Shown one piece after another: positions 36,866-37,310 of a stretch of DNA of 64,000 nucleotides. The notes under the pieces are model-generated. The model was not told the DNA's origin. It did not search any database and saw nothing but the letters and a program-made list of their open reading frames with translations. This DNA comes from Escherichia coli (lineage in GTDB: Bacteria; Pseudomonadota; Gammaproteobacteria; Enterobacterales; Enterobacteriaceae). The DNA lies in assembly GCF_001677475.2 (NCBI RefSeq), contig NZ_CP015229.1; one strand, written 5' to 3'. The translations under genes and the position numbers were made by a program. The stretch's first letter is position 1; every line of letters begins with the position of its first letter.

Positions 36866-37174
36866 TCACTTCAACATGGATGAGAAAAGAACAATACCCG
36901 GGATAATTGCCCTTGTTGCGCTCATTTTCTCTTCCAGATCCAGCTTCCGCTGATACAGCGTGTTCTCGTCGGATAAATTGCTGGCATCGAGTTTCCCCGC
37001 GATAGATATTCTTCGCAGGCGATCAGTGTTAGGTATCGCGATTAACACTTCCAGATAGTCAGAAAGTAACCCAATGATTTCAGGTGGCACTTCCCCATTA
37101 TCCAGATCCATATCACGTAAATTAGCCAGATATGACACATTCAGCGGGTATATATGACCAAGTAAATTATTCAA
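36866..37174 (-). CDS. hypothetical protein (PmgC-like position); true start may be an internal ATG
   Basis: Track ORF whose 5' end overlaps the repeat-containing junction region. Confidence 0.35.
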
Positions 37175-37310
37175 GATAACCGGGAAGAGATTAAAAAAGA
37201 CGGGAACAGATTGGAATCAATAGGTTAGAAACTACCGATATTCAAGATAAAACGGGTTAAAAATGCTCAATACGTCAATATCGATAAAACATTCAAGATA
37301 GGCGCGCCGT
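37165..37310 (+). repeat. three direct copies of ATTCAAGATA(A) spaced about 72 and 51 bp, at the P1-like/Mu-like junction
   Basis: Copies start near 37168, 37240 and 37291, same orientation, each followed by a G-rich stretch. Confidence 0.5.

Follow-up and report, generated by a model that had tools for sequence, protein, structure and literature searches.

The window (the whole 64-kb stretch of DNA that was analysed) carries the backbone of a P1-like phage-plasmid, in which the pmgC gene is cut by a Mu-like prophage. The following features lie at this insertion and in the adjoining early region.

36866..37152, minus strand: truncated P1 pmgC, 3' part, with 98% DNA identity to P1 pmgC up to 37152
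37149..37152, no strand: TATA, predicted left copy of a 4-bp target duplication, at the point where P1 reads GGGTATA and then CCGCTCG
37153..37300, plus strand: probable attL of the Mu-like prophage, 5'-TA at 37153-37154, then three cores
37169..37178, plus strand: core ATTCAAGATA of the putative site L1, positions 17-26 from the terminus
37240..37249, plus strand: core ATTCAAGATA of the putative site L2, positions 88-97 from the terminus
37291..37300, plus strand: core ATTCAAGATA of the putative site L3, positions 139-148 from the terminus
37178..37225, plus strand: conserved part of the L1-L2 spacer, AACCGGGAAGAGATT...GACGGGAA...GATTGGAATC, like Mu left-end nt 28-70
37372..37414, minus strand: terminator-like hairpin of 14 pairs between L3 and the repressor gene, overlapping the repressor stop codon
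37401..37916, minus strand: repressor, Mu c-like in position and orientation (PHROG 3037 transcriptional repressor, E 8e-53)
38108..38359, plus strand: Ner-like early regulator (PHROG 769, E 2.5e-23)
38361..40457, plus strand: MuA-family DDE transposase, 698 aa (PHROG 310 transposase, E 4.5e-196)
38733..38939, plus strand: class-discriminating Iβ-like block of the transposase, codons 125-193 (helical domain 91-204), which sets ATTCAAGATA-type apart from TTGATAC-type elements
40533..41486, plus strand: MuB-like AAA+ transposition ATPase (PHROG 296 DNA transposition protein, E 1e-87)

The early region thus has the gene order c - ner - A - B, its transposase has the domain architecture and DDE triad of MuA, and Mu-type late genes run collinearly up to the window end. 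The hairpin between L3 and the repressor gene is also followed by a T-rich run on the plus strand, and it may additionally block read-through from P1 into the prophage. Two operator-like inverted repeats were seen in the gap between the repressor and ner genes, namely AAAAGTACC/GGTACTTTT at 37917-37925 / 38025-38033 and AGGTATTTTT/AAAAATACCT at 37929-37938 / 38009-38018.

The sequence ATTCAAGATA is present in three exact direct copies on the plus strand, with start-to-start distances of 71 and 51 bp. A preliminary description of this DNA had reported three copies in the same orientation, which is correct; it had also placed the second and third copies and their 51-bp spacing correctly, whereas the first copy starts at 37169 instead of about 37,168 and the first spacing is 71 instead of about 72 bp. 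Throughout the window, ATTCAAGATA is the sole exact 10-mer with three non-overlapping copies inside 150 bp, and 200 first-order Markov simulations of the window produced no such triple. The triple is real and lies far beyond chance. One further exact copy, the only other one in the window, is located at 12218-12227 on the minus strand, inside coding DNA that matches P1-family phages at 99% identity or more and that carries the annotation terminase large subunit or hypothetical protein in relatives. This copy in P1-type DNA would be in line with a chance origin of the repeats or an origin in the P1 backbone, where they could represent iterons, a late promoter, or regulatory elements of pmgC. 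Such an origin is already refuted: besides the outcome of the simulations, identity to P1 stops before the first core, P1-like plasmids do not contain the sequence, and the repeats are also present where the Mu-like element has inserted into chromosomes. The lone copy at 12218 is a chance match outside the element.

The end of the P1 sequence is sharply defined. In megablast comparisons, 97-99% identity to P1-family phages (tub, pmgC) extends to position 37152 and no match continues past it; the alignment breaks after GGGTATA, which is followed by CCGCTCG in P1 and by TATGACCAAGTAAATTATTCAAGATAACC in the window. None of the 507 P1-like plasmids in PLSDB extends beyond 37152, and none carries this insertion. 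The occurrence of the repeats in P1-family genomes without the element, which the preliminary description had named as evidence that would speak against transposase sites, was not observed; they are absent from P1-family genomes lacking the insertion. The ORF at 36866..37174 (minus strand), previously regarded as the last P1 ORF, matches the PmgC-like PHROG over profile positions 93-183 of 183 only, which is the C-terminal half. This ORF is pmgC cut by the insertion and reads on to a TTG at 37174 within the prophage end; therefore its TTG 'start' is an artefact. The first repeat does overlap this annotated start, as had been noted.

The left terminus of the element was located by comparison with related elements, which carry either the core found in the window (class A) or a different one (class B, see below). 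Among more than 20 independent insertions from both classes, all left flanks are unrelated and all sequences become collinear exactly from T(A/G). The relatives sit in narI, in nrfA (where it borders nrfB), and downstream of cusS, others come from many IMG/VR contigs, and they are collinear from TATGAC. Because the unrelated flanks turn collinear at T(A/G)T, position 37153 is the left terminus. Measured from this terminus, the cores begin at 17, 88, and 139 nt, and the repeats fill the first 148 nt of the prophage. Hence, they lie at the true end of the element, as delimited by the 37152/37153 junction, by the more than 20 different flanks, and by an empty nrfA-nrfB site. Mobility is evident from the different flanks at every one of these left junctions (>20/>20) and from clean 4-bp duplications in 7/7 elements.

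The window reaches about 27 kb into the element, and right ends were read from complete relatives and IMG/VR contigs. In the complete relatives VL40 (34.6 kb) and RM9088, the sequence after mom ends with ...TTATCTTGAATAACTTCCATATGCGCGCTTCTGGCTTATCTTGAAAGAATTCCATATCTATCTTGAATAATTTTGCGCGCTTTA and holds three inverted copies of the core. Five further IMG/VR right ends, found with the R2-R1 core pair as the sole search pattern, have the same arrangement of three inverted cores; two other candidates from the class A right-end scan (L068, L074) turned out to be unrelated tandem repeats and were discarded. Inverted copies of the motif at the other prophage end, proposed earlier as a check, are thus present in relatives. 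Counted inward from the terminus, the right-end cores start at 17, 39, and 74 nt. Several sites per end, with the left and right sets in inverted orientation, are seen when the left end of the window is compared with the right ends of VL40, RM9088, and the IMG/VR contigs (L069-L075). L1 and R1 are equidistant from their termini (17-26) and R2 lies 22 bp further in (39-48), which applies to both motif classes. The full register, 17/88/139 on the left and 17/39/74 on the right, is found in all class A members including the divergent elements L045, L071, and L073. Seven left and seven right ends supplied 29 non-identical L1-L3 and R1-R3 site sequences; all 29 contain TTCAAGATA without change, at 2.0 bits per position, and the flanks carry approximately 0-1 bit. 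The spacers between the cores have kept their lengths, and their sequences have diverged. For the window copy, the right junction is predicted to read ...TATCTTGAATAATTTTGCGCGCTTTA, then TATA, then CCGCTCGATGAG.

Class A elements have 5'-TA...TA-3' termini at both ends, the left terminus of class B elements is TG or TA, and 5'-TG...CA-3' termini were not found. The Sp18-like lineage, to which these elements are compared below, has TA-3' rather than CA-3' at its right end and often TA at the left end too. All seven elements for which both junctions were available (L005, L006, L011/L069, L012/L070, L014/L072, L077, L203) show a target duplication of 4 bp and not of 5 bp. The duplicated sequences are TTCA (VL40), TAAG (RM9088), AGGA, CTTT, and GATA (IMG/VR pairs) and, in class B, AGAG (LC727895, for which the depositors also annotate 4 bp) and TGTT (FDAARGOS_943). 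For RM9088, the duplication was verified on the empty nrfA-nrfB site, which reads ...CTGT TAAG CCAATAA.... Duplications of 3 or 5 bp with correspondingly shifted termini were considered and are excluded by the empty site and by those pairs that have a base other than T in fourth place. A literature search found neither a paper that deals with end sequences or duplication length in this lineage nor a binding experiment for it.

With this arrangement, the repeats very probably are the cores of the transposase sites L1 to L3 in the attL of an Sp18-lineage Mu-like prophage inserted in pmgC of the P1-like phage-plasmid, an interpretation derived from comparative sequence data. The L1/L2/L3 reading given in the preliminary description is backed by the register of the sites, by the inverted right-end copies in relatives, and by the finding that the repeats are borne by the element. 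Repeats of this kind are expected in such a prophage, and the basic finding is unsurprising. Alternatively, the sites could be genuine but vestigial, the insertion being dead and the repeats conserved by recent descent alone. The right end lies beyond the window, and the relative in narI of FDAARGOS_943 is IS-truncated, which would be compatible with decay. However, no disruption is seen in the ORFs for repressor, Ner, transposase, and MuB, widespread proteins match the transposase at 96-97% identity, the late genes are collinear to the window end, and the related Sp18 is packaged efficiently (PMC2669165). A vestigial state is therefore very unlikely, and it would bear on the activity of this one copy and not on the identity of the repeats.

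The comparison of the two motif classes further illuminated which protein may read the cores. Loci for this comparison were chosen by transposase similarity only. Class A, which includes the window, has three copies of ATTCAAGATA; the window element and nine others use TTCAAGATA. Class B has three copies of ATTTGATAC at equivalent places, with L1 16 nt inside the terminus. The class B core is TTGATAC(C/T); its right end has the same 17/39/74 register and its L1 also starts at 17, with L2 and L3 deeper than in class A. This is exemplified by the Mu-like phage LC727895 found in Stx phages (left 17/112/~164, right 17/39/74), and the Klebsiella phage Kp4866-3 belongs to class B as well. A class B right-end scan with a loose pattern gave mostly chance matches among the matches listed.

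The classes also differ in one segment of the transposase. In residues 80-210, the Iβ-equivalent region, class A proteins are 74-96% identical to the window transposase, compared with 51-63% for class B proteins. The Iγ-equivalent, catalytic, and C-terminal segments show no class separation, and the Iα region varies between 27 and 87% identity independently of the end-motif class. Class-discriminating residues cluster at 125-193 and include RTISRDPLYQWVLKY in class A versus RxLSxITLKRWIAAF in class B. Two mosaic types are informative in this respect. The transposase of L045 is divergent throughout (Iα 32%, Iγ 75% identity), yet it has the A-type block and the element has the A core. Conversely, the L018/P0022-type transposase, as measured on L018, shares 95-97% identity with the window protein in the Iγ and catalytic domains and 53% in Iβ; it has a B-type Iβ block, and the element has B cores. 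The mosaic comparison was extended to a complete E. coli genome, FDAARGOS_943, where a complete P0022-type copy carries class B cores at its left and its right end, which are separated by 34 kb, and where the outermost 16 nt on the right, TAAAGCGCGCAAAATC, are nearly those of class A. Given the distance of this right end from the transposase gene, the agreement between motif and block cannot be put down to simple linkage. From these sequence comparisons, the motif class follows one transposase block (residues ~125-193) and not the type of repressor or Ner, with the proviso that the co-variation comprises essentially two motif classes and so few independent evolutionary events.

The chromosome of FDAARGOS_943 (NZ_CP065615) contains both classes: the IS-truncated class A element in narI (L002, 1.21 Mb) and the complete class B mosaic adjoining sslE (L203, 4.49-4.53 Mb). 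DNA similarity between the window and the Yersinia phages vB_YpM_5/6 starts at approximately 38941, exactly at the 3' edge of the Iβ block, which suggests that this edge is a recombination breakpoint at which the DNA-reading module was swapped.

Besides transposase sites, the left end of Mu also holds other functions, namely pac and HU binding. The repeats could instead serve a different protein, such as the repressor, Ner, a host factor such as IHF, or the pac machinery, and the L1-L2 spacer does contain a conserved stretch, distinct from the cores, that resembles that of Mu. This stretch (37178-37225) is conserved in class A and L018-type elements and not in the main class B group; Mu pac maps to about the same interval. 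A role of the repeats themselves in one of these functions is quite unlikely, however. The same core recurs in inverted form at the right end, a place where no pac site would be expected, and the motif class tracks the Iβ-like block of the transposase. Moreover, among the class A elements, which share an identical core, identity ranges from 38 to 81% for the repressor and from 37 to 100% for Ner, and the values for class B overlap with both ranges; that repressor and Ner identity do not track the motif argues against either protein as the reader. An IHF site was rejected from inspection of the sequence, because the core departs from the IHF consensus WATCAANNNNTTR.

The preferred interpretation, recognition of the cores by the transposase, was explored further at the level of protein domains. 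Pfam detected HTH_Tnp_Mu_1 and Mu-transpos_C in the window transposase and no match to an Iγ family. A multiple alignment of 78 sequences gives 19% identity to MuA; a pairwise value of 29% was inflated. In this alignment, MuA Iβ (77-174) corresponds to residues ~78-208 and Iγ (175-247) to ~209-289. MuA D269 and D336 align with D311 and D377, which are invariant, and E392 aligns with residue 420; the nearly invariant E417 lies three positions before it. A phmmer search of PDB sequences with the transposase retrieved only Iα (1tns) and retroviral integrase cores, so that Iβ and Iγ were not mappable in this way and were mapped instead by the multiple alignment, an AlphaFold2 model, and Foldseek. 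A listing of homologous proteins contained relatives of at least 78% identity only, which is too shallow for modelling. The AlphaFold2 model (pLDDT 87.8) has a disordered linker at 75-89 and helical domains at 91-204 and 220-289, followed by the catalytic core. The best PDB match in Foldseek was the Mu transpososome 4FCY (~550 columns), and TnsB complexes came next.

In MuA, Iβ and Iγ jointly form the end-binding module (PMC3362531), and in the TnsB strand-transfer complex, Iγ and the Iβ-Iγ linker touch end positions 5-19 and Iβ touches positions 20-30 (PMC9371665). Reading of the core at 17-26 by the Iβ-like domain fits both this geometry and the co-variation and is the most likely assignment, which, for a transposase only 19% identical to MuA, draws on homology and on this co-variation. 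Taken together, we infer the binding of the transposase and the allocation of its domains to subsites from the observed position, orientation, conservation, and co-variation of the cores and from the fold of the protein. Monomers of the MuA-family transposase would bind L1-L3 and the inverted R1-R3. The bound ends would then pair into a transpososome, which would nick at the terminal TA-3' and link the ends to the target at a stagger of 4 bp. The Iβ-like helical domain (~91-204) would most likely read the core of 9-10 bp in every site (17-26 in L1 and R1), and the Iγ-like and catalytic domains would touch the 16 nt nearest the terminus.

The element shares many properties with Mu. Both have three sites per end, a long spacer that parts L1 from L2 and L3, and the genes c - ner - A - B beside attL. 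The cores at 17-26 span the Mu RCGAAA block at 21-26 (CGAAA at 22-26) in L1 and R1, and the step from R1 to R2 is 22 bp in both. The transposase has the MuA fold and the DDE residues, the right-terminal 11 nt (TAAAGCGCGCA in the element, TGAAGCGGCGCA in Mu) are alike, and the spacer at 37178-37225 resembles Mu left-end nt 28-70 (AACCGGGAGGACATTGGATT..CGGGATCTGATGGGATT) despite the low transposase identity. The preliminary description had correctly stated that the sequence differs from the Mu consensus: the 22-bp consensus TGNTTCAYTNNAARYRCGAAAA is absent from the left end when up to three mismatches are allowed, and its lone match in the window, at 53713, is at chance level. Further differences are the following. 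R3 is direct in the element, so that R1-R3 all have one orientation, and is inverted in Mu; L2 and L3 start at 88 and 139 instead of occupying 110-131 and 151-172; the termini are TA...TA instead of TG...CA; and the duplication is 4 instead of 5 bp. The Mu-like reading offered earlier holds, and the TA termini, the 4-bp duplication, and a sister clade with another core, which co-varies with one transposase domain, go beyond it.

The closest known relatives are Sp18-type elements, which comprise Sp18 of O157 Sakai, Mu_JNE122137 in Stx phages (LC727895), and the Yersinia phages vB_YpM_5/6. The Mu-like elements of Stx phages have been likened to Sp18 (PMC10132054). According to its close transposases (76-82% identical), synteny with the same gene order, end architecture (L1 at 17, R at 17/39/74), and 4-bp duplication, the window element is a member of this type, and it shares the habit of landing in other mobile elements (PMC10132054). 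In contrast, Mu_JNE122137, the P0022 type, and Kp4866-3 use the TTGATAC core, which the window element lacks; it has TTCAAGATA and a different Iβ-like block. Some of the Sp18-type elements examined have TG at the left terminus. Tn7 and CAST elements are comparable in that their TnsB, a transposase of the MuA fold, reads multiple sites of ~22 bp per end with Iβ- and Iγ-like domains (PMC9371665). The element differs from them in having no TnsA/C/D/Q-type partners, in being phage-borne, in its MuB-type ATPase, and in its site spacing. TnsB sites are also most conserved in the Iγ and linker part and not in the Iβ part (PMC9371665), in contrast to the sites of the element.

Relative to Mu, the new aspects are the consensus, the terminal dinucleotide, the R3 orientation, and the duplication length of the lineage, within which the window element is a specificity variant. 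End sites are thereby defined for a widespread and uncharacterised Mu-like lineage that occurs in E. coli, Shigella, Salmonella, Klebsiella, and Yersinia and whose prophages are often found inside other phages and plasmids. The two classes and their mosaics resemble a natural domain-swap experiment, which would assign the terminus-distal half-site to the Iβ-like domain. The consistent 4-bp duplication and the TA termini show that two traits commonly taken as hallmarks of transposition by Mu can vary among transposases of the MuA fold. There is about an even chance that ATTCAAGATA-type and TTGATAC-type elements represent naturally orthogonal transposase/end pairs, which would have originated from a joint swap of an Iβ-like module of ~70 residues and six cores, in a lineage whose MuA-fold transpososome would act on TA-3' ends with a 4-bp stagger. 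If this is true, related transposable phages of the two kinds could coexist in one cell, neither mobilising nor immobilising the other. For Mu-based genetic tools, the two classes offer candidate orthogonal transposase/end pairs.

For annotation, the comparison yields the exact prophage boundary and allows the 'last P1 ORF' to be recognised as truncated pmgC. The locus represents a phage within a phage, with a Mu-like prophage of approximately 34-35 kb that interrupts pmgC of a P1-like phage-plasmid. The enlarged, pmgC-disrupted P1 probably is no longer a viable phage. Location inside other mobile elements was also reported for six of ten related Mu-like phages (PMC10132054).
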